A stretch of DNA of 64,000 nucleotides, taken from Catajapyx aquilonaris (lineage: Eukaryota). This document shows positions 1-63,991 of this stretch, in pieces. The stretch lies in assembly GCA_000934665.2 (NCBI GenBank), contig JYFJ02001128.1:1-64000 (forward strand). The letters run 5' to 3'. The notes beneath the pieces were generated by a model. The model saw only the letters and a program-made list of their open reading frames with translations, made no database searches and was not told the origin of the DNA. The translations under genes were made by a program, and so were the position numbers. How positions within the stretch are numbered: position 1 is the first letter of the stretch; each line of letters opens with the position of its first letter.

Positions 1-37
1 GCAACAGAGTGATGGAATGTATGTTTACGGGCATGGG

Positions 38-912
38 CTAGCTAGTTATGAACAAAAATCCCAAATCCCAGACCAAGGCTAGTTCCCCATTGTGATTCCG
101 GCAGCTTTCAACTGCTTCCCACCAGTTCAGCTCTTGGTTGCTGAAATAGTAGCACCCTGTAGCCAGCTGGATAAACGGAGGATCACACAAATTGTCACCT
201 GCACAAGGAAAGTAGAATCCAATTTATCTGCTAACAATTATTATACCCGCAGGTTATACTCACATGCACTAGTTTGGATTGTGAGCTTCCCGGTTTCCGA
301 GCATCTTTCCATCAATTGGCAGCACGAACCTCTGATTCCTTCATTTCCTTCTTTTTGGATCTCACTGGATTCAAGCTGACTCTGAATCTCCTTCTCGCAT
401 ATGTAAGACTGCTTCCGCTGGCAGTCTGCGTCGTGCCATCCGTTGTATGTACCCTGGTGTGACTTCAAGTACAACAAACAGTGCTCGTGGTCCAAGTTAG
501 GCTCGCCTGGTTCCCATGCCGAGTACAAGAAAGTCTTGCCTGTAGATTCCCAGACCCATCGATTGGCTTTGACCAAGTCTGATGCCCCTAACCAGAAGTG
601 TACTCGGCCCACTGAAGGTGTGGTTGTTATTTTCAATAATGTCTAATAATAATTACTGATTACGACAAATTATGACTTACAGAGGGCAAGTTTCTGGCGC
701 AGCGCAGCATCCTCCTCGGCTGTTTGCACTGTAGCCAACACTGAGTCGTGTGTAAGACACGTGTCAAATGCGTCCCACCAGTTCTTGATGTCCAAGCTGA
801 AGAAATAGCATCCTGTTTCCAGCTGGACAAACGGAGGTGGACACTCGCACCGGACACTCGATATCATAAACACCACAACAACGTACCCTGGAATCTCCCA
901 GAAGCTTTTCAT
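38..912 (-). CDS. Lectin K: secreted dual C-type lectin, second domain apparently truncated
   Basis: Signal peptide MKSFWEIPGYVVVVFMISSVRC; CTLD1 (CPPPF..GCYFFS..WWDA, FWLG, EPN, WHD, YICE). Exons ~912-681, ~611-264 (CTLD1b fused to linker) and 199 onward. Exon 4 matches paralogs up to CRNHN (~89), then diverges and reaches TAG at 38-40. Confidence 0.75.
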
Positions 913-1074
913 CCTTCAGATCACTGACAAGAACTGTTTTGTATTATACTATGCCAAGCAAAATAATAATTCGTTCTTGACCTTTTAACTCGCTTTCTAT
1001 CCTTATCTCCTTCTGTGCTATACTTGTTAGAGGCAAAAATGTACTCCTCGGTGTGGTAAGGTCATAAAAATAGT

Positions 1075-1145
1075 TGCATCGGCCGGGAATCGAACCCGAG
1101 TCACACAGCTGCAAGCAATATTCCATGCCTTATAAGCATGACTGC
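1075..1145 (-). pseudogene. Degenerate tRNA-Gly copy (tRNA pseudogene or SINE head)
   Basis: Minus strand ends CGGGTTCGATTCCCGGCCGATGCA, the T-arm and acceptor of insect tRNA-Gly(GCC), followed by ACTATTTTT. GCA start is 71 nt upstream; the D and anticodon arms are decayed. Confidence 0.7.
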
Positions 1146-1245
1146 ATATAACACATTTTCTAACATGCTAAATAATAAAGCAAGTCCAAAGGCAGGATTT
1201 ACTGTAAGTTATTTTATTAACAACCACTCTGGTTATTCTCTGATT

Positions 1246-2708
1246 TTATTTCAATGTTGGCTTGTTGATATTATTGTCAGCCAGGCAATTACAATTTTTG
1301 ACCGGATTTGTTGAGGAAATGCTTGAAGCAGTGGTATGTATGTGTACTTCAGGACAAGATGGCTTGTGATTTGAAATGCGCTTACATACATATGGAAATT
1401 TTTGATCGCAAGGTGCGTCGTTCCACTTAAAGCGAGATTCAGAGATTAAGAAAGTAGCTCCATCAATCAGTTGGAGGCAATGCTCGTTTCCTCCGTAGTT
1501 GTCTGGTACATGGTATTTAACTCCTGCTTTAGACACTAAAACGTCCCAAGCGGTGTAAACTAAAGGTTTCAGAGTCGATTCCCACAGCCATCGACCTTCG
1601 CGGCCAATGTCGAAGGCTCCCAGCGAGAAGGGCTTCCCTCGGTCCACTGCGGAAAAAGTTATAGTTGAGAAACAACGAACACAGTATTTATCACAGTTAA
1701 TAATTTAAATAGCGTACATTTTCGGACTTGCATTTTTATAGCTTCGTCTTCCTCGAGTGTATCAACAGTGGCCAACACCGAATTGATATTGCGACAGCTC
1801 TCAGCTGCCTCCCACCAATTCAGCTCTTGGCTGCTGAAGAAGTAGCACCCTGTAGCCAGCTGGACAAACGGAGGGCCACATTCATCGTCACCTGCGTAAA
1901 AAAGCATCATCTCATCGCACATATGTGCCACTAATAAGGAATTAATGCCAATGGTAAGCTGTAATTGCAGCCTCGATTATTATCAGAGGAGGCACCGAGT
2001 CAATGTAATAAATTATCACTTACGTTCCCTATTCCTGAAACAGGACTGGATTGGCAGATTTCCTGTTTCCGAAAAGACTTTTGCCAATAAATGATAGCAC
2101 GAATCTCTGCAGTCTTCAGCATCTTTCAGGCTGGCAGTCGATGCATGCTGATTGCAAAATATGAATATTGATAAACATAATAAACCAGCGGATGATATTA
2201 AGGGTGTACCTGATCCATCTCGCAGATGTATGACAGTTTCATGTCGCATCTACCGTCGTGCCACTTGTACTCGGAGTACTTCCAGTACACCAAACACTTT
2301 CCTTCCTCACCTTGATTAGGCTGATCTGATTCCCATCCAGTGTACAAGAATGGATTCCCTGTCATTTCCCAGACCCATCGACCTTCTTTGACGCCATCAG
2401 ACGCTCCCAACCAGAAGGGCCTGTCAACTGAATAATTCAATTATTTCAAAATTACGGATTATATGGCCTGTGCACTTACACTCTGTAACCTGTTTGATGA
2501 GGATTGCGTCCTCTTCAGCTGATTCGACAGCAGCCAAGACCGCATCATGTTGACGGCAAGAATCGGCCGCGTCCCACCAATCCTTGACTTCCGAACTGAA
2601 GTAGTAGCATCCTGTCTCCAGCTGGACAAATGGCGGTGGACACTCGCACCGGACACTAGATATCAGAACAACAACGATGACAGACACAACTTTCCAGATG
2701 CCTTTCAT
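1246..2708 (-). CDS. Lectin J: secreted dual C-type lectin, 5 exons
   Basis: Exons 2708-2480, 2427-2210, 2147-2024 (linker), ~1891-1718, ~1647-1246. GT-AG, frame intact. CTLD1 QPN/WHD; CTLD2 VPD/WND; tail CNCLADNN. Confidence 0.9.
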
Positions 2709-3298
2709 TCTTCAGATCCCTTATACAAGCCTACAAGGACTGATTGGACTATGATGAAACACGACAGCGCAGCAGCGTGGTGTAGACAGATTTCTGTTGA
2801 AATAATTATCTGGTCTTGTGACACAAGGCATCTCTTCACGACCTTTTGACATACGTACTATTTATTTCCTTTCTGTGTCGATGATATTGATAAACTCTGG
2901 GTATTCCCACAACCGATTCTGATTTTTATTAGTTCCAAGTGACGTCATTGTTATAATTAGTAAGCAAGAGGAACAACAATCTGAGGTTACATTCAGTAAC
3001 GCAGTAAGACAGTATCTTGGGGGATGAGGGAGAAATTATCTGGATTGAAGAAAACCAAACTACCTACAATAGCAGTGAATCGGGCTTGACCATACTTCAT
3101 TGAGTTACATTATAGCATTGTTGTTGCGTTGTAATGATGTTGCTATGATTGTGTTGATTTACTGATGATCATGCAACACTTGATAAGCTCATCGGTTCAT
3201 GTCTGAAATACAAATGGTGTGGATTTTATTTACATAAAAAATCTCCATCCTGCATCAATTACAATTTATTACAGTCGTGTATGAATAATTGGCTCATT

Positions 3299-5125
3299 TT
3301 ATTGCAAGGTGACAATGTCTACATTGTTGGCGGCCGGGCAGTTACAACTTATCCCCGGATTGAATGCAGATGTTGAGGCATGAACGTGGACAGTGCAAGC
3401 CGGCTTTGAATCGGCGAGTCTCTTGCAAACGTATCGATTCTTGTGATCACAAGGTGCGTCGTTCCACTTTAAGCGATCTTCAGCGATGAGATGGGCTCCA
3501 CCAACCATCTGGAGGCAATGCTCGTTTCCTCCTGAGTTGTCGGGTTCAGGGTATTTAACTCCTGCTTCCGATACTAAAATCTTCCAAGAGGTGTAAACTA
3601 AAGGTTTCAGAGTCGATTCCCATAGCCATCGACCTTCGTGGCCAAAGTCGAAGGCTCCCAGCCAGTAGGGGTAGGGGCTTCCTTGGTTCACTGCAGAAAA
3701 TATAGAACTTTAGTTGCACATCATCGAAATGGCCTGCGATACTCTTATAATAATTAGCATCAAAATTGCAATTATTAATTATTTAATATGGCGTACACTT
3801 TCGGGCATGCGTTGTTATAGCTTCGTCTTCATCGAGTGTTTCAACCGTGGTCAACACCGAATTAGTATTCCGACAGCTCTCAGCTGCCTCCCACCAATTC
3901 AGCTCTTGATTGCTGAAGAAGTAACAACCTGTAGCCAGCTGGATGAATGGAGGGTCACACTCATCGTCACCTGCACAAAAAGGGATTATCCAGCTACCTT
4001 ATATTCATTCCCAACAATAAATTATATATCAATGACGATTGTTTCACGTGCCATACCAATTACAGCTAGAGTTAGATCGAAGAAGTGAATGGTCTTTGAA
4101 ATCAATGTATTGGATGTGCAGTGAGTTATCGTCTTGCTTCCTCTCTACGGAATTTTTCTGGGTTGAAATAATTAATTATATTCCCTTTACATAGTTTATT
4201 TTGTGACTATTATTTTAGGTGCACTGCACTAGAAAAAAACTGTAGTAATGTTCCACATTACATTAATACATGCTAAAATGGGCGACAAAAATGGTAAAAA
4301 ATTGCAGAATTTCTCTCTGCATGCGACAATTTAATTTAAAAAAAATCAAACATTACATCATGCCAGAATCTCATATAATTCTGGTCACTTACGCTCTCTG
4401 CTGCGTGAACACATCGTATGAACTGGAAGCTGTCCAACAGCCGAGAAGATTATCCCTAAGTGGCCGCAGGAATCTCTGATGCATTCGCCTGCATCCTTCC
4501 ATTTCACACCATGTCGACCCTAAAAGAATATTGTATGTACAGAAGTCCCCTTTAGAAGGGAACCAAGTACGTTAGAAAATGAGATGGAAAATATTATACT
4601 TGTGCTTGCTTCTTCTCGCAGATGTAGGACAGTGCAGCGGTGCACCCACCGTCGGCCCATTTGTAAGTAGGAGGACCCCAGTACACCAAACAGTTTCCAT
4701 TGGCGCCGTTGTGAGGCCATCCCGCACCCCATCCGGTGTACAGGATGTGTTCCTGAGTCGATTCCCACACCCATCGACCTTCTTTTGCCAAGTCGGTTCC
4801 CCCAAACCAGAAGGGCCTATTGACTGAAAGATCATGGGAACTTGATGGCTCAGCTGGATATGGCCCAATAACTGCAATAATTAAACTTACACTCTTGAAC
4901 CTTCTGATTCAGGATAGTGTCCTCCTCAACCGTTTCCACCTCTGCCAAAATCGAATCGTGTTGACGGCAAGAATAAGCTGCGTCCCACCAGTTCGTGAGA
5001 TCTGAGCTGAAGAAGTAGCATCCTGTCTCCAGCTCCACAAACGGAGGTGGGCACTCGCACCGGACGCTGGATATCAGGACAATGACAACGATAATGGACT
5101 CGACTAATTCACAGCTTCTCTTCAT
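3299..5125 (-). CDS. Lectin I: secreted dual C-type lectin, 5 exons
   Basis: Exons ~5125-4890, ~4823-4600, ~4520-4392, ~3971-3797, ~3691-3299. CTLD1 WPH/WAD; CTLD2 EPD/WND. Confidence 0.9.
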
Positions 5126-5298
5126 CCTTCAGATCTCTGACTAGCACTGCTGCAAGCCCAGCGATGGCATAAAATTATGTGATTTGGCACTATCGCGAGA
5201 ACAGTCATGTTGACATCTGCCTTCTAACATGTGACATTCTGATTAATTTATTCGCATTGATATCAGTGGTGGCAGCAGCAGATTTGTAGAATAATAAA

Positions 5299-5416
5299 TG
5301 TGTAGCATATTACGGTGATAATGATAATAATTATCATTATCACCGTAATATGCTACACAGTATAAAGCAAGAAAACCACAAACAATAATTATTATTGCTT
5401 GTGGTTTTCTTGCTTT
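5299..5416. repeat. Two adjacent near-perfect palindromes (30-bp and 26-bp arms, 1-nt centres)
   Basis: 5299-5359 tgtgtagcatattacggtgataatgataat-a-attatcattatcaccgtaatatgctacaca. 5364-5416 aaagcaagaaaaccacaaacaataat-t-attattgcttgtggttttcttgcttt (1 mismatch). Confidence 0.95.
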
Positions 5417-5825
5417 GCCAATTCTACAGTCATGTGTAATAAACTAATATCTTACCAATAACTGCACAAATTCCACACATCTACAACTCTACATTTACTG
5501 CTCTTTGAACGGAAAATAGATTGCTGAAGCACAGCATTAAGTATTGGCTCATAATAATAGTAAAATATTATTTTACGGAACATGTGTACATCTCAAACTT
5601 GTCTGTTAATATTGCTGTCAAATACTATTTATCAATTGGCTCAATTGGCCGTATTTGATTGACTAATAATGAATTTGGTGCTAGATAATCCCTTACGTAA
5701 AAATATCATACTAATCTTGAATAGTTATGCTTGTCTTGGTGTTGTCACGTTGCTATTTTGTGCATGTAAGCAACTTTACGTGCTAATAGTAAATACCTCA
5801 CAACCAGTAGATAATTTTAAAATAT

Positions 5826-6260
5826 CCACTTTCCAGGTTCGGTTCATCCTTCAGATAACCAACAAGGACTGCTTGAACTATATGATGAAACCGAATAACC
5901 GATGAAACCTTGGATGAAACACAAGAGCGTGGGGTAGACAACTTTCTACAGAAAAATATTATCTGCGTTTCATGACATAGGCTATGGCATCTTGTCGCGA
6001 CCTTTTGACTCTAATATTTTATTTCCGTTCTGAAGCAGTGATATCGCTAAAGACCAGGAATTCTTCTGGGCAATCCCGCAGTTTATTACTCTGATATTTG
6101 TTAGGTCAAAATGACATTATTGCTGCCATTGCTAATAAGCAAGAGGATGTAGGCAATAGAGCAGCATGGAGGAATCTTGGGAGATGATTAAGAAATGTTC
6201 TTGATTTGAGAACACCAAACTGTCCTCAATAGCTTTGACTATAGGGTATATGACCATACT
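5826..6260 (-). pseudogene. Orphan lectin promoter plus first codons (relic of a J-like gene)
   Basis: Parallels 2690-3110 upstream of lectin J. ATG at 5847 reads MNRTWKV (J: MKGIWKV), after which homology ends. Confidence 0.7.
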
Positions 6261-6430
6261 CCATTGAGATAATTATTTTCGTTGCGTTTTGCTATTTTTA
6301 TTTTTTTTTTGCTCAGGAATACCCTACTCTTTATCATATCTGAAATAATTGGTGTATATTTTTATAAATAAAGTCAACATCCTGTATCAATTATTTATTA
6401 CTGTACACATGTATGAATAAGTCCTTCATT

Positions 6431-7013
6431 TCATTGCAAGGTGGCAATATCGACATTGTTGGCGGCAGGGGCAGTTACAGCCAGTTTGGTTGTAGAAGTT
6501 GCAGTATGAACGTGGACTTGAGTGCAAGTCGGCTTCTAGTCGGCGAGTCTCTTGCAAACGTATAGATTTTTGTGATCGCAATGTGCGTCGTTCCACTTGA
6601 AGAGAGACTCCGAAGCGAAAATAGGACCAATCATTTGGAGGCAGTGCTCGTTTCCACCTGCGTTGTCTAGAGACGGGTGTTTCGCTCCTGATGGTCTTAC
6701 TAATGCCTCCCAGCAGGTGTAAACCATTGTCTTCTAAGTCGATTCCCATACCCATCGACCTTCGTGACCCCTATTTAAAATATTGTGGACATTTTGAATA
6801 TGAAGTTACCCATAATATCATCAGTATAAATAAATACCTTTTAGAGCATGGGTTCTTAGGGCGATATCCTCCTCCTGTGTTTCACATTGTGGCCAAAACC
6901 GAATTTACATTTCGACAGTTTTCCACCGCTTCCCAGCAGTTCAGCAACTACTTGCTGAAATAATAGCACCCTGTAGCTAGCTGAATAAACGGATCTCGAC
7001 AACCACCATCATC

Positions 7014-7055
<42 letters not shown>

Positions 7056-7631
7056 TAACGTCCACACATGAAGGCTGCGACTTGTGTCATTATGATGTAT
7101 TCCCGATTGCTTAGCTCCAATAACTGTATTATAATGAATTGTCCAAGACATATTCACAATTATTGTGAATATATCTTAAGACACTTAATAATAAATAATT
7201 TACAGTAGCAGACAACATTCTCACTTTCACTTTCTATAAAAACAGCGTATATTAGACTCATCTAGTTTTCCCAGATGGCATCAGTCAACGACTGACCATA
7301 TGAAGACCTGAAGCACTCTTCTGCTTCTTTCCAGCTGGCCTTTGACCCATCTCGACTCTGAAAGTAACATATACAGTAGCTTATATACACTGGAAAAGTA
7401 TTGTCGAGAATGCAGATGTGCTTAATATCGGTTCTTTCTTCTCGCAGATGTATGACCTGTGGAGTGAACATCCACCATCGTGCCACATGTAGCTCTTGGA
7501 GGTAGATTTATAGTACACCGCTAGGCAATTCCGGGTTGCATCTTCATTGGTCTCATTATAGGATCCCACCCAGACCCATCGTCCTATTCTCTTAGCCAGG
7601 TCCGATCCCCCAAATAAAAAGGGCCTGTTGA
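6431..7631 (-). pseudogene. Lectin H pseudogene
   Basis: No exon 1. Exon 2 has an internal deletion after WVW and no GT donor. TAG in the linker (7262) and in exon 4 (6948). Exon 5 lacks its 5' part. Confidence 0.9.
7018..7051. repeat. (GA)n microsatellite
   Basis: About 17 GA units; forms the pyrimidine tract before exon 4 of pseudogene H on the minus strand. Confidence 0.95.
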
Positions 7632-7748
7632 CTAAACGATGATAAATTAGCCTCCAGGCTTTTCCTGTAGTTTAATATAAATCAAACGATCAAATGCTTC
7701 ATTTTATTCAATTTATTTCTTATGCACTGTCTAATTTTAGTGCTTTGT

Positions 7749-9286
7749 CTAGATGCCAACATTGTTCTCGGAAGGGCAGTTGAGGTGTTTTGCTGAATTT
7801 GTTTCAGGGGCTGCATGAACGTGTATTTCAGTGGAAATAGACTTAGAAGAGGCAACTCGCTTGCATATGTAAGGAGTTTTCGTCTCACATGTGTAATCAT
7901 TCCACTTGTTGCCGTATATTCTACCTGCCAGGTTGAAGCAATGCTCATTCCTGTTGGCCCCCCCATTGTCTGGTTGAAAGTGTCTTGTTCCTTCTATTAA
8001 TTCTCCCCAAGCGGTGTAAAGGAAAGGTTTTAGAGTCGATTCCCACACCCATCGACCTTCGTGACCCAGGTCAAAGCCGCCCAGCCAGTAATGTTTTTCC
8101 GGGTTCTCTGTCGAATATAAGAATGACGAATATGTGATGTTATGCAGCATGGAAAGGGAAGTGTCTGCATGAGCACCATGGCTGATGCTTACCTTTTTTC
8201 ACTTGACTTTGTATTGCGACGTCTTCCTCTAGTGATTCTATTGTGGCCAAAACCGAGTCATGATTTCTACAGCTTTCAGCTGCTTCCCACCAGTTCAGAT
8301 CTTGTCTGCTGAAGAAGTAACACCCTGTAGCCAGCTGGACAAACGGAGGGTCACACTCATCATCACCTGCACAAAGATATATAATTCAGGTAGTACACTT
8401 TGGCTGACAAAACAAGTAGAAAAAATAATAATGTACTTCACAACAATAATATTATACTTCACGATTGTTACGCGTGCCATATCAGTGATAGTTAAGCATT
8501 GCATCATTACGAAAATCACTTTAATTATGATCTCTTACTCTTACTGCTGCGTGAACACGTGTGAACTGGAAGCTTTCCAACAGCCGAGAAGACTATGCCC
8601 AAGTGGCCGCAGGAATCTCTGATGCATTCCCCTGCATCCTTCCATTTGACACCATCTCGACCCTAGAAGTTAGTGTAGGTTCAGAAATACCTATAAGTGA
8701 AGCAAGTACATTGAAAGTGAGATGCGGAAAGTATGGAAAGTAAGCCTATACCGGCGCTTGCTTCTTTTCGCAGATGTAAGACTCTGGAACGTGGCACGCA
8801 CCGTCGGCCCATTTGTAAGTAGGAGGACCCCAGTACACCAAACAGTTTCCAGCAAGGTTTCCACTGGCACCACCGGCAGGCCTATTGGTATCCCACCCGG
8901 TGTACAGGATGGGTTCCTGCGTAGATTCCCACACCCATCGATATTCTTTTGCCAAGTCGGATCCTCCAATCCAGAAAGGCCTATTGACTTAAAGAACATG
9001 GAAACGATATGGATCAGCTGGATATGACCCAATAATTGCACTTGCACTTACACTCTTGAACCTTCTGATTCAGGAGAGTGTCCTCCTCAACCGTTTCCAC
9101 CTCTGCCAAAATCGAATCGTGTTTACGGCAAGAATAAGCTGCGTCCCACCAGTTCTTGAGATCTGAGCTGAAGAAGTAGCATCCTGTCTCCAGCTGCACA
9201 AACGGGGGTGGGCACTCGCACTGGACACTGGATATCAGAACGATGACAACGATGATGGACTCGACTAATTCACAGCTTCTCTTCAT
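7749..9286 (-). CDS. Lectin G: secreted dual C-type lectin, 5 exons
   Basis: Exons ~9286-9051, ~8987-8752, ~8663-8545, ~8366-8193, ~8108-7749. CTLD1 RPA/WAD; CTLD2 QPD/WND. Confidence 0.9.
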
Positions 9287-9789: not shown

Positions 9790-11267
9790 TTAGCGCTTTG
9801 TCTGTATACCGACATTGTTCTCGGAAGGACAATTGAGATGCTTTGCCAAATTTGTTTCAGAGGCTGCAGGAATTTGTAATGCAGTATAAATCGGCTTACA
9901 AGAGGCAACTCGTCTACATATGTAACGAACCTTTTCCTCACACGGTAAGTCATTCCACTTACCACCGTATATAATTCCACTTGCCAGGCTGAAGCAATGC
10001 TCATTCCCATTGGTATTGTCTGGTTGAAGTTCCTCCCAAGCGGTGTAAAGGAAAGGTTTTAGAGTCGATTCCCACACCCATCGACCTTCGTGACCCAGGT
10101 CAAAGCCGCCCAGCCAATAATGTCTCAACGTGTCATCTGTCGAATGTAAGGATATTGAACCTGTCATGTTATGCAACATGGAAAGGGCAGTGTCTGAGTG
10201 AGCAGCATGACTGATGCGTACCTTTTCGCACATAATCTTTTACTGCGACGTCTTCCTCCAGTGATTCTATTGTGGCCAAAACCGAGTCATGATTTCTGCA
10301 GCTCTCAGCTGCCTCCCACCAGTTCACCTCTTGGCTGCTGAAGAAGTAGCATCCTGTAGCCAGCTGGATAAACGGAGGATCACACATCTCGTTACCTGTA
10401 CAAAGTGAGATAATGTATGCCTTTACACATTCTTCTGCCTCTGATTCTTCTTCCGAACAATTACCGTATAGTACTTGCCGATTGTTACATGTGGCATACA
10501 TTACATCATACGAGATCCGCTTTAATTCTGGTCACTTACGCTCACTGCTGCGTGAACACATCTGGACTGGAACCTTTCCAACAGCTGAGATTATCCCAGA
10601 GTAACAGCAGGAATCTCTAATGCATTCGCCTGCATCCTTACATTTGACACCATCTCGACCCTACAGGAGAAGGGTATGTAGTACACAGATATCAAACCTA
10701 ATCACGATTAGCACCAACGGCTTCTGCTTTAACATCTCTATAATTATTATACCTGAGCTTCCTTCTTCTCGCAGATGTAGGACAGTGGAACGGAGCAGGT
10801 ACCGTCGAACAACTTGTAAGTAGGTTCCCAGTACAGCAAACAGTTTCTCGTGGGGTCATTTTGAGGCTCACCCGGAGCCCATCCGGTGTACAAGATGGGT
10901 TCGTGTGTCGATTCCCATACCCATCGACCTTCTTTTGCCAAGTCGGATCCTCCAATCCAGAAGGGCCTATTCACTTAAAGAGCATGGAAACGATATGGAT
11001 CAGCTGGATATGGCCCAATAACTACCTGCACTTACGCTCTTGAACCTTCTGATTCAGGATGATGTCCTCCTCGGCCGTTTCCACATCTGCCAAGACAGAA
11101 TCGTGTTGACGGCAAGAATCAACCGCATCCCACCAATTCCTGAGATCTGAGCTGAAGAAGTAGCATCCTGTCTCCAGCTGCACAAACGGAGGTGGACACT
11201 CGCACCGTGCACTGGATATCAGCACGACGACAATGATGACGGATCCGAAAACTGCCCAACCTCTCAT
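9790..11267 (-). CDS. Lectin F: secreted dual C-type lectin, 5 exons
   Basis: ATG 11267 (MRGWAVFGSVIIVVVLISSARC). Exons end at ~11036, ~10753, ~10540, ~10221 and 9790. CTLD1 EPQ/LFD; CTLD2 QPD/WND. Confidence 0.9.
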
Positions 11268-11606: not shown

Positions 11607-12973
11607 TTAATTAAGTGCAGTGATGTTGACATTGTTGTCAGCAGGACAGTTGCAGCTTCTCGCCGAATTTCTTGCAGAGACGCCATGGCAAGTAGAAGTC
11701 GCAACTCGCTGGCATATGTACGGAAATTTGATGTCGCATGCAGCATCGTTCCATTTGTAGTCCTGCACTCGATCAGTCATATGGAGGCAATGCTCGTTTC
11801 CACCTGAATTATCCGGCTGTGGATATTTGACTCCTGCTTCCGACACTAATTCTTCCCATGCTGTGTAAAGGAAAGGCTTCAGAGTCGATTCCCACACCCA
11901 CCGACCCTCGTGACCCATGTCGAAACCTCCCAGCCAGAAAGATTTGCCGTGGTTTTCTGTCAAATATAAAGACGCTTGTAATTATCCGACGTTTCTCAGA
12001 AAGTAAATGACACACGTAAACATTGTACCTTTTTTCGCTTGTGTTTTTATAGCCAGATTCTCCTGGAATGATTCGACTGTGGCCAAAACCGAATTGTGAG
12101 TCCGACAGCTCTCGGCTGCTTCCCACCAGTTCAACTCTTGACTGCTGAAATAGTAGCAACCTGTGGCTAGCTGCCTAAACGGAGGATCGCACTCCGCGTA
12201 CCCTGTGCACATAAAGCGTAATGATTAGAGACGGAAATACACTAAATATTACAATAATGCAACTCTTTGCGATCACTCACTGAGGCGTGAACTAATTCCA
12301 TTTCCCCAGCGTGAATCTGATGACAAGTGACCACAAGAAGCTCTGAAGCATTCCTCAGCTTCTTTCCACGACCCTCGACGTTTCTTTTTAAAAAAATCGT
12401 TCACAACTTCGCAGGTAATATATTAGGTGCATAATTATGTGCATTACCTTACCTGTGACTGCTCCTTCTCGCATATGTAGGATCGTAGGTAAGTGCAAGT
12501 ATCGTCGTGCCACTTGTAGGTCTGGACTTTCCAATACACCACACAGTTCTCTGTGGCACCACCAGACGGCTGACCACCAGCAGGCTCCCATCCCGTGTAC
12601 AAGAAAGGTTTATAGGTCGACTGCCAGACCCAGGCACCTTCTTTGACCCCATCCGACCCTCCCAACCAGAAAGGCCTCCCAACTTGAATATTTCATAAGA
12701 GGATCAAACTTTTGCATGTTACCAAACTATTGAGTTTCTCTTACGTGCGGTAACCTGCTTAATGATGGCTGCGTCTTCTTCTGCTGTTTCTACTGCAAGC
12801 AAGCCTGAATCGTGTTGACGGCAAGAATCGACAGCGTCCCACCAATTCTTGGTATCCGAACTGAAGAAGTAGCATCCTGTCTCTAGCTTCATAAAAGGTG
12901 GTGGACATTCGCACTGGGCCTTGGATACTACCAACACAACAATGACTGACCCAAGAACCACCCAGCTTCTCAT
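11607..12973 (-). CDS. Lectin E: secreted dual C-type lectin, 5 exons
   Basis: ATG 12973 (MRSWVVLGSVIVVLVVSKAQC). Linker KRRGSWKEAEECFRASCGHL. CTLD1 QPS/WHD; CTLD2 QPD/WND. Confidence 0.9.
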
Positions 12974-13407: not shown

Positions 13408-14509
13408 TTATGAGTACGTAACAGCCGACTGGCATATGAATTCATGGTGTGAGGTGCATGCATCGTTGCTCCAAGAGTCCATCGTTCTGTCCAGAAGCAG
13501 GCAGTTCTGATCAGGTCCTGAAGGAATCGGGACATCATCCTGGCCAGACATCAATCCTGATGGGATGTCTTCCTCCCCTACCTGTACGAGACCGGTTGCA
13601 GCCACCCACATGCTATCATCTGAAACTGAAACAGAGGAATGGTCCTGATGTTGCACAATATGTTAAAAAAAATATTCAATCGAACTTACTGCTGCCAGTC
13701 AATCGTGCAAAAGCCTTCAACTGAAGCAAATCCCTGTCTCCATGCACCTCTGCCATGTATCCTCCCAAGGCTCTGCAATACTCGTCAGCTTCAGACCAGC
13801 TGGAAGTCAGTCCCTTGCTGTGAAGGAAGCACTTGCTGGACAGCATGGTGAACATCGGAGGACACGAGGGCTTTCGAGGCAAATGACAGTGACAGCTGAC
13901 GTTCAGTGGATCAGGACACGGCTGTCCAGAAGCCTTGTTCTTCTCGCATATGTAATGCATCTGCCCGTCGCACCTGTAGTCATTCCAGGAGTATCCGGTC
14001 TTGTGAAAAATCATGAGACAATTCTCGTTGCCTTTCCAGTTGTCTTCATCAAAGTCAGATGACATGTACAGGAGTGGCTGGTAGTTCGATTCCCACAACC
14101 AGCGTCCTTCGTGACCCAGGTCAAAACCACCTATCCAGTAGCTTCTTCTGGCTAATCTCACAGAGAATAAATAAATAACATTACAAAGACGCTTTCCAAC
14201 TGGGCAACCAAATAGTTTAACCCAAACCATATTATCTGGAGACATTTTAATTAACAGACCGTACAGGCGATACTTACTGGATCGTGCGTAGTCTTTCAGG
14301 CGCGTGTCTTCCTGGAAAGAGTCGATTGTGGCCAACACTGCGTCATAATTTCTGCATTTTTCTGCTGCCTCCCACCAGTTTGACTGCTGGTCACTGAAGA
14401 AGTAGCATCCTCCACCGTTCAGGCTAACAAAAGGTGGACTACAGTCCTGGGCGGCACAAACCACTAGCACAAAGAAGCCTCCGAATAGAGCTGTTGCTTT
14501 TCCCATCAT
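13408..14509 (-). CDS. Lectin D: atypical dual C-type lectin (domain-2-type CTLD followed by a divergent CTLD), 3 exons
   Basis: ATG 14509 (MMGKATALFGGFFVLVVCAAQ), downstream of a TATA-like site and TCATTC. Exons 14509-14278, 14151-~13689, ~13620-13408. First domain carries the GGFDLGHEGRWLWES and WND signature of domain 2; second domain CPPMF..KCF..WSEADEYC..WSND.C...FIC. Confidence 0.85.
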
Positions 14510-15230: not shown

Positions 15231-15394
15231 TGCATAATTTGCTTTCAGAAAATATCTCTGCTGCGACCGCAAATATTTTCCTCGTAGACATGTTTCCGAT
15301 ACATTTATAGATATTAGATACAGACAGGTTACACAATGTAATAAACGTACAATGTTATTTATTTCAGCAGTCACCGACTATAGTCACAGTTTGT

Positions 15395-16854
15395 TTAATT
15401 CAATGCAGTGAAGTTGATATTGTTCTCAGCAGGACAGTTGCAAGTCCTCGCCGAATTTCTTGCAAAGGCGCCATGGCTAGTAGAAATCGCAAGTCGTTGG
15501 CATATGTAAGGAGATTTGCGATCGCAAGGGTAATCGTTCCATTTGTAGTTGTGAACTCCACCTGCCAAATGAAGGCAATGCTCGTTTCCACCTGAATTAT
15601 CCGGCTGTTGATATTTGAGGCCCTTTTCAGTCACTAATTCCTTCCATGCTGTGTAAAGCAACGGTTTCTGAGTCGATTCCCATAGCCATCGACCTTCGTG
15701 ACCCATGTCGAAACCTCCCAGCCAGAAAGATTTGCCGTGGTTTTCTGTCAAATATACAAGTGAGATTTAGTCTGACAGTCATCCTGCCACATCGAGCTTC
15801 TCTTGCTTGCCTTTACGCGCTTGCTTTATAAGAGCAAGATTCTCCTGGGGCGTTTCGACTGTGGCCAAAACCGAATTGTGATTGCGACAGCTTTCAACTG
15901 CTTCCCACCAGTTCATCGACTGGCTGCTGAAATAGTAGCACCCTGTGGCTAACTGGATGAAAGGAGCATCACACTCACCTGCGAAAAATATTAATCCTGT
16001 GATACACTGCATTTTCAGTCCTCATCAGTTCTGATGGTGGCATAGTTATTTCTTATAAATATCACAATAAAGATGCCCACCATCTCACACTTGACTCACC
16101 TTCATATTGGCTGCCTGATGAGTATGTCTGGGTTGGAAACCGTTTGGTTCCAAAACACACGTCTGGAAGAGAGTAATGGTCGCACGAAGAAGCTCTGAAA
16201 CACTCCTCGCCACCTTTATTCTCACCAGCAGTCAACTTGTGCCGACTCTAATGGAAAGAGTTACATATGCCTCAATATTGCTAAAAGTAGGGTATCTGTA
16301 AGTTCATAATATGTAGGCTACAATACTTTACCGTGACTTGCCCCCTCTCGCATATGTATGTGGCCTTATTGAGACAACCCCAGTCGTGCCATTTGTAGGT
16401 GTGATGCTTCCAGTACACCAAACAGTTATGAACCTCGCCTGTCTTGGGCTGACCATTTTCCCATCCCGTGTACAGAAAAGGCTCGCAAGTTGCCTCCCAG
16501 ACCCATAGCCCTTCCCGGAATCGGTCAGATCCTCCCAACCAGAAGGGCCTGTCAACTGAAATGATTTAAATCAATCAGTCATTTATCCTGATAGAATAAT
16601 GAGTCCAACTTACATGCTGCGACCTGCTTAATGATGGCTGCGTCTTCCTCAGCTGTTTCCACCGTAGCCAAGACCGAGTCGTGCAAAAGGCAAGATTCGT
16701 AAGCTTCCCAATAATTCCTCAGATCTGAGCTGAAGAAGTAGCATCCCGTCTCCAGCTCCACAAACGGAGGAAGACATCCGGATTGTGCCCTGCTGGTGCA
16801 GACCAATAGTGCAGCTACAATGCACCAAATTGCTTTCCACATGGTGTTCTTCAT
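15395..16854 (-). CDS. Lectin C: secreted dual C-type lectin, 5 exons, GC-AG intron 4
   Basis: Exons ~16854-16614, ~16555-16332, ~16247-16100, ~15978-15811, ~15745-15395. CTLD1 QPK/WHD; CTLD2 QPD/WND. Exon-4 donor is AAG|GCAAGC. Confidence 0.88.
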
Positions 16855-17546
16855 CTTTCAGCTTTCTTATTGCAAAGACTGGCAGAAAATGTATACTGAG
16901 TTTCAACCACTCTTGTTGCGGTCACTGGTGGCACCCTTTAATATAATCCATGGTTGACACTTTGAACTGTTCTAATTTTCATACTTTGATTGACATACGG
17001 AGCATGTAAGCTGATAAGGAATAGTTACATCATTAACGTTTGGAGATTATGCTATAGCTAAGTGCATTCCTACATAACTATACTTTTTTCAACATTTTCT
17101 CAAACAATAAAAATGTGTTTGCAATATTTATCACTTTCGTGTCTCTCCCACCACATCACTTTACGTTGCTATAACAGTGCACATTATCCACATGTGAGGT
17201 ATATTTTTGTTGTTTGGTTTTCCTCCATGTTATGCAATGTTTGATTCAACATGCAAGTGGCATATATCCCGATTCCGCGAAGCAATGAATTAAATATCAA
17301 CACTCTGTTATTACAGATTTGCGTACAACAAGTCTCATATTTTAACATAGATTACAAGTTATATAATTTCCGAATTGCTTTACTTTCAACAGTATAATAA
17401 TGACTTACTTTGGTCATGTCGATCAATGTCGTGTTACCTGTCGGTACAACAAACAAAATATTGGTTCTGCACTTACAATAATATTCTGCCTAATAATGCA
17501 CAAGAGTGTGTCTGGACAGTTTGATAGATGAATACAACAAGAAGCG

Positions 17547-17605
17547 TATAAAAGTGGGAGTGCATGTCGACTTCCTACATTGAAGAGTTGCAGAGTTCCA
17601 GCCAC
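17547..17605 (+). promoter_or_regulatory. TATA box and non-coding first exon of the Cys-rich peptide gene
   Basis: TATAAAA at 17547-17553; donor CAC|GTGAGT at 17606; acceptor ccctcttttag at 17708, 17 nt before the ATG. Confidence 0.7.
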
Positions 17606-17725
17606 GTGAGTAACTCCAAGGTACTTTTATCTTGTACACGATAATTTTTAAACCTGTATAGTTCTAGATATTAATGTCGTACTCTCATATGTTTGTTCCC
17701 TCTTTTAGTTAGAGGAGACGTCACA

Positions 17726-18339
17726 ATGATGAAGGGGATTGCTTATGCATTGCTGCTTTTATCCGTGTTGCATATTGCCACTGGTTTTTTTACCTTCAGC
17801 TTGACTGACCCATGTACTGGACGTAAGAGTCGTCTCATTCTAATATTCAGGGTGGCCACGAAATAAGGAGCACATGTTAGTGAGTAGTAAAACAGTGAAG
17901 AAAATTTAATAGAGTACACGCAAGTGAAACTACGGTTCAATAAAACATGTTTTATTGTAATTTCACTTGCTTTTATGAAATATTTTCTTAATTGCTCCAG
18001 TCCTTATTTAGTGGCCACGCTGGTATTTCAGAGGTATACATACTCTAGACCGTGTCTCAACGATAGAAGTGATAACGCAGTCATTTTGCGGAGAGTTAAA
18101 CGAATGTCACATTTTCGTTGAAACATTGCATACACACTGATTTTTCCCTTCATTTTCGTTTAGAGATGTACTCTCAGACCCAGGGTTGTCCATATACAAG
18201 CCAAGAGTGCTACGATCCTGCGGAAGACAAGTGCGTCACCTGCAACTGCGCTGGACCCGACCCTAACGACATGTTCAGCATGTTCACTATGTCCACAATT
18301 ACTTGCGCTCCAAATGAAAAGGTGGCTCCAAACTGCTGA
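17726..18339 (+). CDS. Small secreted 8-cysteine protein (90 aa), family unknown
   Basis: Exons 17726-17822 (GAC|gtaag) and 18164-18339 (tttag|AG) join in frame: MMKGIAYALLLLSVLHIATG-FFTFSLTDPCTGQMYSQTQGCPYTSQECYDPAEDKCVTCNCAGPDPNDMFSMFTMSTITCAPNEKVAPNC*. AATAAA at 18410. Confidence 0.85.
17848..18022. mobile_element. MITE-like element (Tc1/mariner-type ends) in the peptide gene intron
   Basis: cagggtggccacgaaataagga ... tccttatttagtggccacgctg form 22-bp imperfect terminal inverted repeats. Confidence 0.65.
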
Positions 18340-18680
18340 TAATTAATTTATATGTGTGATATCAACATTTAGTCTTATTTAGAACCATGCTGTACAGACC
18401 AAAGCGATCAATAAAATGTGCAAAAATCATGTTGATTCACTTATCATTTCAACAAAGCACTTTATTATTATTTTAGTTCCACACTTTCAGTTGCAGCACT
18501 GTCATACTGCTGCTGATGGCAACCAGACAAATGGAAACTCCCAAATTAGTGGAAGCGGCAGGACGGAAATATTGGTACAATACTGCAAATTGTGATACAA
18601 GCATGCCGTTTGGCACAGTTGTTCTCTGGACCAAAGTAAGCGATTTGACCCGCAGCTCACTTGATTTCGTCACTTAGGAT

Positions 18681-19136
18681 TCAAGATGGCGGCCAATAAT
18701 CAAAATGGCCGCCGTTGGTACAAAATCGGTATTTTTCGTCGGAAATTGACGATTGAGGAGTCAATTCCAAGCAATATGAAGTCGCTGAACACGAATCTAA
18801 TGTCAGAATGCAGTTTGAACACGCTTTAAACCAATATGGCGGCCAAGAATCAAAATGGCCGCCGGTGATGGTACAATAAATCGGTATTTTTCGTGGGAAA
18901 TTGACGATTGAGGAGTCAATTCCAAGCAATATGAAGGCGCTGAACACGAATTTGATGTCAGAACACAGTGTTAACACGTTTTAAACCAATATGGCGGCCA
19001 ACAATCAAAATGACCGCCGGTGATGGTACAAAATCGGTGTTTTCCGTGGGAAATTGACGATTGTGGAGTCTATTCCAAGCAATATGAAGTCGCTGAACAC
19101 GAATTTGATGTCAGAATACAGTGTTAACACGTTTGA
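18681..19136. repeat. Three tandem ~150-155-bp units, probably transposon-internal
   Basis: atggcggcc recurs at 18686, 18836 and 18991. Each unit has a ggcggcca...tggccgcc stem and ggaaattgacgattgaggagtcaattccaagcaatatgaag. Confidence 0.9.
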
Positions 19137-19228
19137 AAGTCATTGTGAACAGGCATTATACAGTGCAGAGAGTACAGTCGGTTAAAGGAGTATGTTACCA
19201 GACCCCTAACCTAGAAATTAGCCTCCAA

Positions 19229-19333
19229 CAGAGGTGCTGCCTAGGGGAGTGAGATTTATTGTATCAGGGGGAAGAACAGAGGTGCTGCTTCCCCCTGATA
19301 CAATAAATCTCACTCCCCTAGGCAGCACCTCTG
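19229..19333. repeat. Perfect 46-bp inverted repeat with 13-nt loop
   Basis: Arms 19229-19274 and 19288-19333 are exact reverse complements. Loop aacagaggtgctg duplicates 19227-19239. Confidence 0.97.
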
Positions 19334-19377
19334 GAATTAAGTCCAAAAGTAGCATATTTTAAAATTTTATTTTACGG

Positions 19378-20687
19378 TCAGTGCAAAGCAGTAATGTTGA
19401 CATTGTTATTAGCGGGACAATTGCATAACTTTTCTGCATTTCTTGCAGAAACGTCAGTGAAGTCAGGTCGGATGTGAACACTTATTGGGCAAGCAGGTTT
19501 AGTAGCCTTCGTGCGCTTGCATATGTAAAGTATCTTGTTATCACACATGCATCATTCCAGCTGAAGTTGTACACGCCACCAATCAGCTGTAGGCAATGCT
19601 CGTTTCCTCCTGAGTTGTCAGGTTCAGAGTATTTAACGCCTGTTTCCGACACTAAAACGTCCCAGGCAGTGTAAAATAAAGGTTTCAGAGTCGATTCCCA
19701 CAGCCAACGACCCTCGTGGCCAATGTCGAAGGCTCCTAGCCAGTAGGACTGGCCATGGGATTCTGTCAAAAATAATGGCAATTAGATTCGCATTATGCAA
19801 CTGGCAGTGCTTTAAATGCTTATTACCACTTCGCGCACGCGTCTTTACAGCTTCGTCTTCCTTTGGCGACTCGAGTGTGGCCAAAACCGATTTCTGATTT
19901 CGACAGCTCTCAGCTGCCTCCCACCAGTTCAACTTTTGGCTGCTGAAGAAGTAGCAACCTGTGGCTAGCTGGATGAACGGAGGTTCGCACTCATCGTAGC
20001 CTGACGTCCTGACTGGAAGGCATCCATTACAGGAGCATAATTCTGCCCTCTGATTACATGAAGCCGTGGAACATCCATCCACTTCTTTCAATACCTGAAT
20101 CGATTGCTGAAACATTCAGAAATCACCACACCATAAAAATCGAATAGAGTTTCTGTGTACCAGTATAATGTACCTTCTCCTTCTCACAGATGTAAGAGAG
20201 TTTTTCGTGGCAATTACCGCTGTGCCAACCATTATAGGTACCCAGGTGTGTCTTCCAGTATACTGAGCAGAGATCCGTCGATGATTTAGGCTCACCTGGT
20301 GCCCATCCTGAGTACAGGAAAGGCTTGCCCGTTGATTCCCAGGCCCAGCGACCTGATTTGATCAAGTCCGATCCGCCAAACCAGAAGTTCCTATCCACTT
20401 AATGGGAGTTAATGAAAACAAGTCAACTATCAAGAACTCTATACAGTCTACTTACACGTAGCAATGTGCTGGAGCAGTGCATGGTCCTCCTCAGCCGATT
20501 CCACAACTGCTAAAACCGAGTCGTGCTGTCGGCAAGAGTCACCTGCATCCCACCAATCCTTCTTATCCTTGCTGAAGAAGTAGCATCCTGTGTTTATCTC
20601 TACAAAAGGTGGTGGACAGCCACAGTGGGCCTTGGATATCCAAACGACAGCAATGACAAACCACACTACTTCCAAGCTCCTCCTCAT
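19378..20687 (-). pseudogene. Lectin B: dual C-type lectin with a 1-nt frameshift in the last exon (pseudogene, null allele or sequence error)
   Basis: TGG AAT GAT GCA TG- TGT GAT at ~19546. Adding one base restores CDNKILYICKR...LCNCPANNNVNITALH*. CTLD1 EPK/WHS; CTLD2 EPD/WND. Linker is fused to exon 4. Confidence 0.8.
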
Positions 20688-20980
20688 AGTTCAAATCCCT
20701 GGAAAGAACTACTTAAAAAACTGTGATAACGTCATGATAAATGAGAAGCCATAGAGAAATAATAATCATGGCGTTTCCATTATAGGGTGTGACCTTTTGA
20801 TTCGCTTCCCCTTGACAACATTGATATCAGTAGGCCTGTGAGGTCCAGAAGTACACATTTGATTTTAAATTGGTTTCTGGGTTAGGATATACGCTATTAT
20901 GCTAGTAAATGAAGTACGGTACTGTATAATAATATTAATTATATAATTGCTTTATTTGACATAATGTTGTAGCCTATTTT

Positions 20981-22447
20981 TTAGTGTAAAGTCATGAAGT
21001 TGACATTTTTCTCAGCAAGACAGTTGCAATAATTCCGTTCCGAGTCTGCCGCAGAGGCAGCAGCATGAACATATTCTACTCTGCATGCTGGCTTAGAAAT
21101 GACGACTTGTTTGCATATGAACCCATACTTGTTATCACACGGGGCATCATTCCACAACCTGGCATCCTTTATCAGCTGGAGACAATGCTCATTTCCACCC
21201 TTATTGTTGTCTGGCTGATGGGTGTCCCAATTGGTATACAGCAAAGGCTTGAGAGTTGACTCCCACAGCCATCGACCTTCGTGACCTAGGTCGAAACCTC
21301 CCAGCCAGAAGGATTTGCCAGGGGCCTCTGTCAAAATGTAGAGAGTTTCAATTTGGGAAGTTACTCTCAGCGTTTATCTACATTCTGCGCACCTACTTTT
21401 TATGGCTTGTGCTTTTATAGCTTCGCTTTCCTCGAACGAGTCGACTGTCGCTAAAACTGAATTGTAATCTCGACAGGTTTCAACTGCTTCCCACCAGTTC
21501 AGCTCCACTTGGTCACTGAAGAAGTAGCACCCTGTATCTAGCTGAATAAATGGAGGTTCACACTTGTCACCTGCACAAAGACAGAAAGATCCACTCACAG
21601 GTTTGTCACACCATATTGCTTAGCACAATTAATTTGGTTTGATGTACTGTACGTTATTGATGTACTCACGTTCACTGTAGTCGCATGAATACCTTTGGGT
21701 TGGAATCTTTCCAGTTCCAGAGCATGTGTCTGATGACAAGTGACTACAAGAAGGCCTGAAACATTTGTCTGGGCATTTCCTATGTAGACTCTAAAAGAAC
21801 GGCACTTATTGTACAGATAAAACTGCTGAAGGTTTGATCAAAGTACAGTACAACGAAATACCCAGTGGTACAGTGCCCAAGTTACCAAATAATTTCACAT
21901 GTCTGCATAAAATATATTGTGTTCATAAGTAATTCCATACCTGTGTTTTTCCCTTCTCGCAGATGTAGGACAGCATTACACTGCATTCACCGTCATGCCA
22001 CTTGTAGGTGGGATGCTTCCAGTACACAAGGCAATTGTGCGTCTTAAGATTCTTAGGCTGGCCTACTTCCCATCCCGTGTACAGTAGTTGTTCGCCTGTT
22101 GATTCCCAGACCCATCGATCATCCCTCAAACGGTCAGATCCTCCAAACCAGAAGGGCCTGTCAACTTAATTATTTTAAAAGAGATAAGTTGGGTGACTCC
22201 TCTGAAAGAATAATGAGTTAAGCTTACTAGTGGTAACCTGCTGGATCAGTACAGCATCCTCCTCTGCCGTTTCTACTTCAGCCAGTACTGAGTCATGTTG
22301 GCGGCATGTGTCGGCTGCGTCCCACCAATTCCTGGCATCCAAACTGAAGAAGTAGCATCCAGTCTCTAGTTGTACAAATGGCGCTGGACATTCACATTTA
22401 GTCCTGGCTACCAGAAATGCAATGAAGATAAGCCAGCAGCTCTTCAT
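20981..22447 (-). CDS. Lectin A: secreted dual C-type lectin, 5 exons
   Basis: Exons 22447-22228, 22164-21941, ~21790-21670, ~21570-21397, ~21327-20981. CTLD1 QPK/WHD; CTLD2 QPD/WND. Confidence 0.9.

Positions 22448-60422: not shown

Positions 60423-63991
<3,569 letters not shown>

Follow-up and report, generated by a model that had tools for sequence, protein, structure and literature searches.

A minus-strand array of dual-CTLD lectin genes in Catajapyx aquilonaris pairs a first domain depleted in calcium ligands with a canonical second domain

Introduction

A functional immulectin is a microbe-induced haemolymph protein that binds LPS, LTA or glucan and acts in agglutination, encapsulation or prophenoloxidase activation. 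The immulectin (IML) class itself is defined by architecture, namely a signal peptide and two tandem CRDs, and is described in PMC9316843 as not monophyletic. In addition to Manduca, Mythimna and Thitarodes, immulectins have been reported from Tribolium, Anopheles and Bacillus rossius (PMC8235521, PMC7379682, PMC9316843). The insect dual-CRD lectins described so far are mostly immune-induced according to PMC8235521 and PMC7379682, independent dual-CRD origins and odd triplets have already been described among insect lectins (PMC9316843, PMC8235521), and ligand binding is still possible for insect CRDs whose motifs are incomplete, as stated in PMC9316843.

Here, a window of 64,000 nucleotides from Catajapyx aquilonaris (contig JYFJ02001128.1) was analyzed, in which a minus-strand array comprises nine related dual-CTLD genes (A-C, E-G and I-K) together with the divergent dual-CTLD gene D and pseudogene H. 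The predicted products have the architecture of the IML class: a predicted signal peptide and two tandem CRDs, the first and second referred to as D1 and D2, with no anchor or other domain. The literature search, which covered main texts and few subscription papers, returned no description of the present array or of any dual-CRD family with a degenerate D1.

Results

Organization of the array

The original prediction of a lectin array at 38..22447 proved correct, with the start codon of gene A at 22447 and the end of the open frame of gene K at 38; all features below lie on the minus strand. Gene A (20981..22447; 361 aa in five exons) encodes a signal peptide, D1 with QPK/WHD motifs, a Cys linker, D2 with QPD/WND and a Cys tail. 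Five exons were also found in gene C (15395..16854; 376 aa; D1 QPK/WHD, D2 QPD/WND), whose intron 4 is of the GC-AG type, gene E (11607..12973; 361 aa; QPS/WHD, QPD/WND), gene F (9790..11267; 364 aa; EPQ/LFD, QPD/WND), which is a whole-gene duplicate of gene G (7749..9286; 375 aa; RPA/WAD, QPD/WND), gene I (3299..5125; 383 aa; WPH/WAD, EPD/WND) and gene J (1246..2708; 381 aa; QPN/WHD, VPD/WND).

Gene B (19378..20687; D1 EPK/WHS, D2 EPD/WND) has four exons and lacks intron 3. In the present contig it carries a 1-base frameshift directly after the WND motif of D2, with a shifted-frame stop at 19482; the frame is open and the frameshift absent on an alternate contig (L002, 99% identical), and B was rejected as a fixed pseudogene. 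The 5′ part of gene K (89..912) lacks intron 2 and encodes an intact D1 (EPN/WHD), while its D2 is interrupted in exon 4 by the end of a DNA transposon (1..88) with a perfect 14-base terminal inverted repeat and a 2-base AT target duplication. This transposon breaks the contig. The remainder of K was located on L001 (G000:C10335); there, close to the end of the D2 domain, the reading frame contains a stop.

Gene D (13408..14509; three exons, ~301 aa) encodes a D2-type first domain without the central Pro but with WND kept, a short Cys linker and a divergent second CTLD; this layout is that of dual genes on other contigs. Pseudogene H (6430..7635) lacks exon 1 and has frameshifts and stops in D2. 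An intergenic or promoter stretch at 5926..6479 is a remnant of the J-type unit, with 65% similarity to the region preceding J (blastn, 5926-6479 against 2774-3346, E 7e-32).

The PF00059 profile scored above cut-off for the D frame and for exons 5 and 2 of A, whereas exon 1 of A and exon 3 of D, searched singly, scored under it. At least six Cys residues occur in all nine D1s and six in 7 of the 9 D2s (those of B and K are truncated), with 2-5 extra Cys in the linker of 42-56 residues and 1-3 in the tail. By hydropathy only, 10/10 models have a hydrophobic N-terminus and no membrane segment. At least 150 lectin-exon matches were counted in the genome.

Sugar-site motifs and calcium ligands

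The motifs read originally from the letters were reproduced in full. Eight distinct D1 triplets occur among the nine genes, with WHD (five), WAD (two), LFD and WHS as second motifs, and D2 has QPD (six), EPD (two) or VPD (one) with WND throughout, the D2 motif of K being taken from L001. The ligand set of calcium site 2 is given as E185, N187, E193, N205 and D206 in PMC8235521. In D2, four of these five positions are invariant in 9/9 copies and the remaining one is Q/E in 8/9, so that the full set (E/Q185, N/D187, E193, N205, D206) is present in 8/9 and only J has Val at the first position. In D1, E/Q was found in 7/9, N in 2/9, the Glu193 equivalent in 2/9, the WND Asn (N205) in none and D in 8/9. 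A complete five-ligand site was sought in all nine D1s and found in none, the best being K with four of five. The D1 triplets had been taken as alternative sugar specificities, a reading that did not hold: in the absence of the other calcium ligands, they are not readable as a sugar code. Of the two marks of a galactose-type CRD, QPD is present in six D2s, and a Trp adjoining the triplet, as in the MBP-A QPDWG mutant, was found in 0/9; this Trp is not conserved in the insect CRDs covered in PMC8235521. In the solved-structure matches, the triplet, Glu-x-Cys and WND align in register with the array domains.

Substitution rates and positive selection

D1 had been predicted to be hypervariable and D2 more constant. 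Mean pairwise identity among eight genes (K excluded) was 0.648 for D1 and 0.678 for D2, lower for D1 in 21 of 28 pairs, and dS was likewise higher in D1 (1.36 vs 1.16). Domain-wide omega was 0.296 (D1) and 0.299 (D2), and on these near-equal values a domain-wide hypervariability of D1 was rejected. The scaffold gave 0.21 (D1) vs 0.23 (D2). Nor is D2 constant, since its loops evolve as quickly as those of D1: omega at loop positions other than the ligands was 0.61 for D1 and 0.55 for D2, and loop length varies more in D2 (35-51 residues) than in D1 (33-38). Recognition-segment identity was 0.47 (D1) vs 0.57 (D2), and the corresponding omega, 0.60 vs 0.47, did not differ significantly (p=0.16). 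At the five ligand positions of calcium site 2, omega was 0.66 in D1 vs 0.04 in D2 (2dL 26.8, p<1e-4, a p-value that is optimistic, since the contrast had already been noticed when the test was run), and the contrast persisted when double and triple changes were allowed (2dL 18.6). The D1 ligand positions thus evolve at the rate of their neighboring loop residues. An excess of D1 loop diversity was therefore absent outside the five ligand positions and present at them, and the contrast between the domains, as read from these rates, is explained by a release of the five calcium ligands.

A possible but less likely account than the one we favor (see Discussion) is that D1 would be a diversifying, calcium-independent sensor under positive selection near the old sugar pocket, with D2 as a common glycan anchor and half-swaps creating new pairs. 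Under single-hit site models, D1 gave a signal (M2a vs M1a, 2dL 12.8, p=0.0017, omega ~7; M8 vs M8a, p=0.0014), with omega >1 at ~4% of codons around the binding face, whereas the same tests on D2 gave p=1.0 and 0.28 and no sites. The top D1 sites were the residue after the triplet and the residues on either side of the Cys following the W-x-D motif; their placement on the binding face is by alignment, an AlphaFold2 model of the half-domain exon having a mean pLDDT of 41.5. The signal persisted after dropping gapped or ambiguous columns (p=0.003-0.015) and after dropping F, K or B+K (p=0.004-0.005), and none of 109 simulations under the null matched it. Without G, I or both, however, it fell to p=0.07-0.08. 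When double and triple substitutions were allowed, the fit improved by ~20 log units and the D1 test gave 2dL 2.3 (p=0.32); false positives of M2a and M8 in the presence of multinucleotide changes are reported in PMC6332903. The equal loop omega of the two domains outside the five ligands also speaks against diversification. In the recognition segment, pN exceeded pS in 3/3 of the closest D1 pairs vs 0/3 D2 pairs, which are non-independent and have few synonymous sites. Taken together, diversifying selection in D1 is weakly indicated, with the single-hit models for it and the multinucleotide-aware models against it.

Exchange, decay and transcription of the copies

The per-domain phylogeny proposed in the original prediction gave conflicting trees, in which the D1 and D2 topologies reject each other (AU 7.7e-72 and 3.5e-5). 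Gene I is a chimera of G and J: its D1 is closest to G and its D2 to J, with the switch in intron 3. Its 5′ half is a G-like block of promoter and exons 1-3 (4348..5330), which aligned to the G region (4348-5270 with 8494-9439 at 84% identity; 5101-5330 with 9262-9501 at 79%). G and I are 96% identical in exon 1 and 92% in exon 3, while exon 2, at 84%, is near the level of the introns (78-81%). Both the low identity of exon 2 and the pairing of a G-like D1 with a J-like D2 would fit the diversifying sensor, against which stands that only one of the nine genes is clearly chimeric.

Not all copies are intact, as seen from pseudogene H, the transposon-split K with its D2 stop and the frameshift in one form of B; H and K bear out the proposed birth-and-death repertoire. 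D2 is the broken domain in K, H and one B form, and D1 is open in 9/9, as would be expected if D1 were important by itself. As judged from the genomic sequence, tandem copies arise, decay and exchange halves at the interdomain intron.

Several copies are transcribed, as indicated by spliced contigs of one run of unrecorded kind (X1), which skip 13 introns in the array and cover A, D, E, G, H and I. All four introns of A are skipped, both of D (the second acceptor, 13625, lying 6 bases off the gene model), introns 3 and 4 of E, introns 2-4 of G and intron 4 of I; the GC donor of intron 4 of C is present in one joint. Pseudogene H is covered by spliced contigs (joint 6769-6837). Another piece, at 7340-7954, is unspliced and runs from the 3′ end of G into H. 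The cross-paralogue joints 4785-16525 and 11956-15811 were rejected as chimeric transcripts or alleles, and the difference cluster at 4708-4756 was rejected as alleles; all were taken as contigs of other paralogues. Outside this cluster, X1 differs from the contig at 14 coding positions (7 synonymous, 7 not; too few to test), none of them within a D1 recognition segment.

We consider it improbable that these are non-immune secreted proteins (components of the cuticle, of eggs, of gland secretions or of the gut matrix) under relaxed constraint, in which the Cys-rich linker and tail would cross-link. The extra Cys residues noted above fit such a role, and the closest solved structures include, at low similarity, the non-immune CTLDs tetranectin and lithostathine; rapid turnover combined with a strictly conserved D2 sugar site fits recognition, as does the predominance of immune induction among insect dual-CRD lectins (PMC8235521, PMC7379682).

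Origin and relatives

A long branch (90/100, length 0.66) sets the D1s apart, and the D2s group with the first domain of gene D and with a single-domain gene on L003 bearing the same Cys tail. On a further branch, all 24 domains of this genome were separated from 22 foreign domains (SH-aLRT 90, not starred), a foreign set without lepidopteran immulectins. A clade of D1 with the first domains of five foreign proteins was rejected (AU 1e-11); D1 joined with the sole Penaeus domain past the score filter was not (AU 0.39, long branch).

The profile search of longer proteins yielded 63 matches, all generic CTLD proteins and none named immulectin. Representatives gave 1363 matches at E ≤0.001 with no close relative among them, and of ten looked up, two were named, neither informatively. 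None of the 358 candidates from a homologue search with the gene D open frame passed. Atlas look-ups returned generic CTLD clusters for K exons 2-3 and no match for the small Cys-rich gene. In line with the independent expansion suggested originally, no close described orthologue was found, the best single-stretch relative having 53% identity, and the two-domain layout is probably lineage-specific in origin, as judged against a set of proteins containing no immulectin sequence. Inheritance as a two-domain gene orthologous to lepidopteran immulectins or crustacean dual-CRD lectins is very improbable: the architecture class is shared and the Penaeus tree is not rejected, but the other trees and the non-monophyly of the IML class (PMC9316843) argue against it.

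Discussion

With modest confidence, we favor the view that the array is a lineage-specific tandem family of secreted dual lectins, in which D2 would be a calcium-dependent glycan binder and D1 a calcium-independent partner. The sequences show a single origin of D1 from the lectin domains available locally and a release of its calcium ligands from constraint, while purifying selection still maintains the domain as a folded unit (scaffold omega 0.21). D2, whose canonical calcium site 2 is complete in almost all copies, would bind glycans of the QPD/EPD type, with paralogue-specific loops tuning fine specificity. D1 may provide a second target contact or serve as a protein-binding or oligomerizing module, its triplet drifting like any surface loop residue. 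Several observations count against this view: the single-hit D1 signal, pN above pS in the D1 pairs, the four of five ligands in the D1 of K, ligand binding by insect CRDs with incomplete motifs (PMC9316843), and D2 being the broken domain. By analogy with immulectins and crustacean dual-CRD lectins, we infer an extracellular recognition role, which might be opsonization, agglutination or the triggering of melanization.

A bolder picture, which we think rather unlikely, is a combinatorial innate repertoire in which a calcium-independent D1, diversifying around its former sugar pocket, and a calcium-dependent D2 anchor are re-paired by recombination in the interdomain intron; it would have originated separately from immulectins, in an arthropod lineage that has received little study and whose genome makes wide reuse of dual-CTLD modules. 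If D1 binds non-glycan or calcium-independent ligands, the nine D1/D2 pairs and one recent chimera would be a compact natural series in which the exit of lectin domains from the EPN/QPD code and the division of labor in two-domain lectins could be probed. As a caution, triplets alone do not justify inferring sugar specificity or hypervariability.

Like the immulectins of Manduca, Mythimna and Thitarodes, the array proteins are predicted to be secreted, with two tandem CRDs and no other recognized domain; lineage-specific expansion and non-canonical triplets in some domains are likewise shared, as is, with Thitarodes, the occurrence of QPD mostly in the second domain (PMC8235521, PMC7379682, PMC9316843). 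Unlike immulectins, D1 lacks the WND Asn in every copy and has EPN in one of nine, the proteins have a Cys-rich linker and a Cys tail, and the domains group with lectins of their own genome, with no sequence evidence of orthology. A Penaeus merguiensis C-type lectin (P0331) likewise has two CTLDs, QPD and EPN motifs and an N-terminal hydrophobic stretch; it differs in showing 33% identity over the matched exon and in lying outside the own-genome domain clade. The best solved-structure matches were to mosquito mosGCTL (PDB 9t9z, 9ta0; E 1e-12 for the D2 exon, 2e-10 for the D1 exon), single-CRD lectins whose similarity does not go beyond that of CTLDs in general. The closest relatives of D1 and D2 are the first domains of own-genome genes on L003 (single domain and tail) and L004-L006 (dual, with the layout of gene D). 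These have the phase-1 intron common to the array, and the Cys tail of L003 is that of the array; the L004-L006 genes differ in having the canonical domain in first place, followed by another kind of CTLD, and in lacking the derived D1. As known now, the array is a local variant of a common invertebrate kind of gene family, one more lineage-specific lectin expansion.

Gene Models and Array Anatomy

Ten minus-strand gene models were built from the raw sequence of the array (38..22447), which consists of nine related genes with two C-type lectin-like domains (D1 and D2; genes A-C, E-G and I-K), the divergent gene D and the pseudogene H. The architecture was of the secreted type, with a hydrophobic N-terminus in 10/10 models and a later membrane segment in 0/10, and the introns were GT-AG throughout, with a single GC-AG exception. 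Seven of the ten models had five exons with intron phases 1, 0, 1, 1: exon 1 encoded the signal peptide and the first half of D1, exon 2 the second half of D1, exon 3 a Cys-rich linker, exon 4 the first half of D2, and exon 5 the second half of D2 and a Cys tail. Gene B was without intron 3 and gene K without intron 2; gene D had a different layout of three exons, with a D2-type domain first and a divergent domain second.

Gene decay was evident. Pseudogene H was without exon 1 and carried stops and frameshifts, and exon 4 of K was interrupted by a transposon. The inverted repeat of this element measured 14 bases, and the target duplication 2 bases (AT, reminiscent of the ISL2EU group). Judging by the matching repeat ends and the reading frame, K would continue on L001, another contig piece of the same genome, where a stop lies close to the end of D2. 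The transposon is a young repeat: its end (window 1-88; L001 3341-3436) recurred, with 100% identity over 96 bases, at the other end of C470, the contig from which the window comes (L007, last 96 bases). The frameshift in B is either allelic or an assembly error, since it was absent from the piece L002, 99% identical over 314 bases. In the genome assembly searched (285.6 Mb, 20,583 contigs), at least 150 matches to one lectin exon were found (150/150 scored, of 249 candidates), and lectin domains are therefore strongly expanded; lectin expansion is mentioned also for a non-insect hexapod (PMC6938034). On two other contigs (G000:C3201 and C6362), single-domain lectins, of which many have EPN, formed additional tandem arrays.

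Neighboring Elements

In the interval separating B from C, a two-exon gene on the plus strand (17726-18339), covered by contigs of the sequencing run X1, encoded a secreted-type peptide of 90 residues with 8 Cys, for which no match was found in Pfam or Atlas. Just downstream of B, the stretch 18552-19332 contained a short inverted repeat together with three copies of a ~150-base repeat (88-91% alike). Since L002 has ~220 different bases in its place, the stretch has the look of a polymorphic insertion. The minus-strand gene at about 24600-45700 is, judging by its sequence motifs, a putative DOCK-family GEF, and two plus-strand innexin genes (36564-38269 and 39872-41365; innexin confirmed for 37478-38266) appear to sit inside one of its introns on the opposite strand. 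The innexin was 88% identical to one protein and 48-63% identical to the other 119 listed, and the named proteins among the matches listed were all from insects, mostly annotated inx3. We take this to indicate an arthropod, most likely a hexapod that does not belong to the well-annotated orders of insects. Minus-strand exons at 60717-63991 were taken by us to resemble dihydrolipoamide dehydrogenase.

Transcription

Contigs of X1, the only sequencing run used, were compared with the stretch 2501-22500, outside which K and most of J lie, and covered 26/30 bins. Among the 15 joints listed of 27, 11 were modeled introns, one was the second intron of D (acceptor 6 bases from the model), one was an intron of pseudogene H, and two linked different paralogues. 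The first intron of D (14278-14151, minus, 126 bases) was in frame and stop-free, yet spliced. Spliced transcripts of A, D, E, G, H and I were thus observed in one run of unrecorded kind, a result that speaks to splicing rather than to tissue, level or condition. The H region (6382-7954, minus) lay under one spliced X1 contig and one unspliced contig running from the last exon of G into H, possibly as read-through from G.

Mosaic History

The D1 tree contained (F,(G,I)) (100/99) and (B,K) (89), and the D2 tree (I,J) (100), (F,G) (100) and (C,E) (99); the D1 and D2 alignments each rejected the other's topology (AU 7.7e-72 and 3.5e-5). Gene I was a chimera. By segment-wise identity its nearest relative was G for the upstream sequence (0.77) and for exons 1-3 (0.96, 0.84, 0.92), J for exon 4 (0.88) and for intron 4 (0.76), and H and J for exon 5 (0.78, 0.77). 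The switch from G-like to J-like sequence lay inside the long intron 3, and a J-like intergenic remnant was found upstream of the G-like block. The simplest reading is that a J-type gene acquired a G-type half in place of its own 5' half, via conversion or unequal crossing-over. The remaining tree conflicts, which involve B/K and C/E, date further back and are less clear-cut.

Substitution Rates and Selection in D1 and D2

The original prediction paired a hypervariable D1 with a more constant D2. Its triplets and second motifs were recovered exactly when the models were re-read; the contrast held for the five calcium ligands, but not for the whole domain, the other loop codons or the scaffold. 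Over 28 pairs, D1 and D2 had mean identities of 0.648 and 0.678, dN of 0.259 and 0.215, and dS of 1.36 and 1.16. The one-ratio omega (dN/dS; nine sequences each, own GY94 implementation, with the D2 end of B from L002 and of K from L001) was 0.296 versus 0.299, and the domain-wide contrast is small.

The ligand set comprised the five calcium-site-2 ligands of MBP-A as listed in PMC8235521, positioned by alignment. Site 2 was intact in D2, with four positions invariant and the fifth Q/E in 8/9, whereas the D1 positions had E/Q in 7/9, N in 2/9, E in 2/9, N in 0/9 (His in 6) and D in 8/9. With intervals conditional on a fixed tree scale, the partitioned omega of D1 versus D2 was 0.66 versus 0.04 for the ligands (2dL 26.8), 0.61 versus 0.55 for other recognition-segment codons (p=0.63) and 0.21 versus 0.23 for the scaffold (p=0.29). 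When double and triple changes were allowed, these values became 0.46 versus 0.04 (p=2e-5), 0.42 versus 0.42, and 0.16 versus 0.17. Because the difference is confined to the five ligands, the asymmetry is real but narrow: the D1 ligands are released and now evolve as fast as ordinary loop residues, and the loops are equally fast in both domains. A conserved aromatic motif (Tyr-Trp, Thr-Tyr-Lys-Trp) is particular to D1. In D1 of A and C (near 22030 and 16420), His occupies both the Glu193 and Asn205 equivalents beside the conserved Asp, where one could conceive of a site that binds a transition metal or responds to pH.

Under standard site models, M2a was preferred over M1a in D1 (2dL 12.8, p=0.0017, omega ~7 at 4% of codons) and M8 over M8a (p=0.0014), while the same tests gave no positive selection in D2 (p=1.0 and 0.28). 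The top D1 sites lay after the triplet and on either side of the Cys following the W-x-D motif, and the best D2 sites, non-significant, fell at homologous places. The D1 signal was reached by 0/109 null simulations and held after gapped or ambiguous columns were dropped and without F, without K, or without B and K; it weakened to p=0.07-0.08 without G, without I or without both. Once multinucleotide changes, a known source of false positives in such tests (PMC6332903), were modeled, p rose to 0.32. The evidence for positive selection in D1 is suggestive, and the rival reading of D1 as a diversifying sensor, which the standard models favor and the multinucleotide model does not, is possible but doubtful.

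In D1, site 2 is degenerate yet the domain is under purifying selection. On balance, a joint reading is slightly favored in which D2 would bind glycans via calcium, D1 would supply a calcium-independent contact or adaptor function, and the proteins would act in extracellular recognition. A non-immune role of the array proteins is considered improbable. The array is real and partly as first described, although less striking than its title.

Origin and Relation to Known Dual-CRD Lectins

Elsewhere in the genome, L003 encoded one D2-type domain followed by the Cys tail also seen in the array genes, and L004-L006 contained dual genes with the layout of gene D. A long branch (90/100; length 0.66) separated the D1s from the other domains, and the D2s lay in an open fork with the first domain of D and L003. 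In a tree that excluded L5a and the second domain of D, the 24 own domains stayed together against 22 foreign domains (SH-aLRT 90, not starred). A tree that united D1 with first domains from five foreign proteins was rejected (AU 1e-11); one that united it with the single Penaeus domain was not (AU 0.39). We infer that D1 was added, in this lineage, in front of a D2-plus-tail gene. From these trees, which were without any lepidopteran immulectin, the array is likely independent of lepidopteran immulectins, and inherited immulectin orthology is highly improbable.

The immulectin (IML) class is described as not monophyletic, with multiple independent CRD duplications, and its proteins often bind ligands despite incomplete motifs (PMC9316843). 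Lineage-specific expansions are reported, as are triplets such as QPS, HPD, KPA and QPN, and in Thitarodes QPD is mostly in the second domain (PMC8235521, PMC7379682). The array proteins share the architecture of the IML class and differ from the described IML lectins in having lost the WND Asn from every D1, in the linker and tail, and in visible domain exchange.
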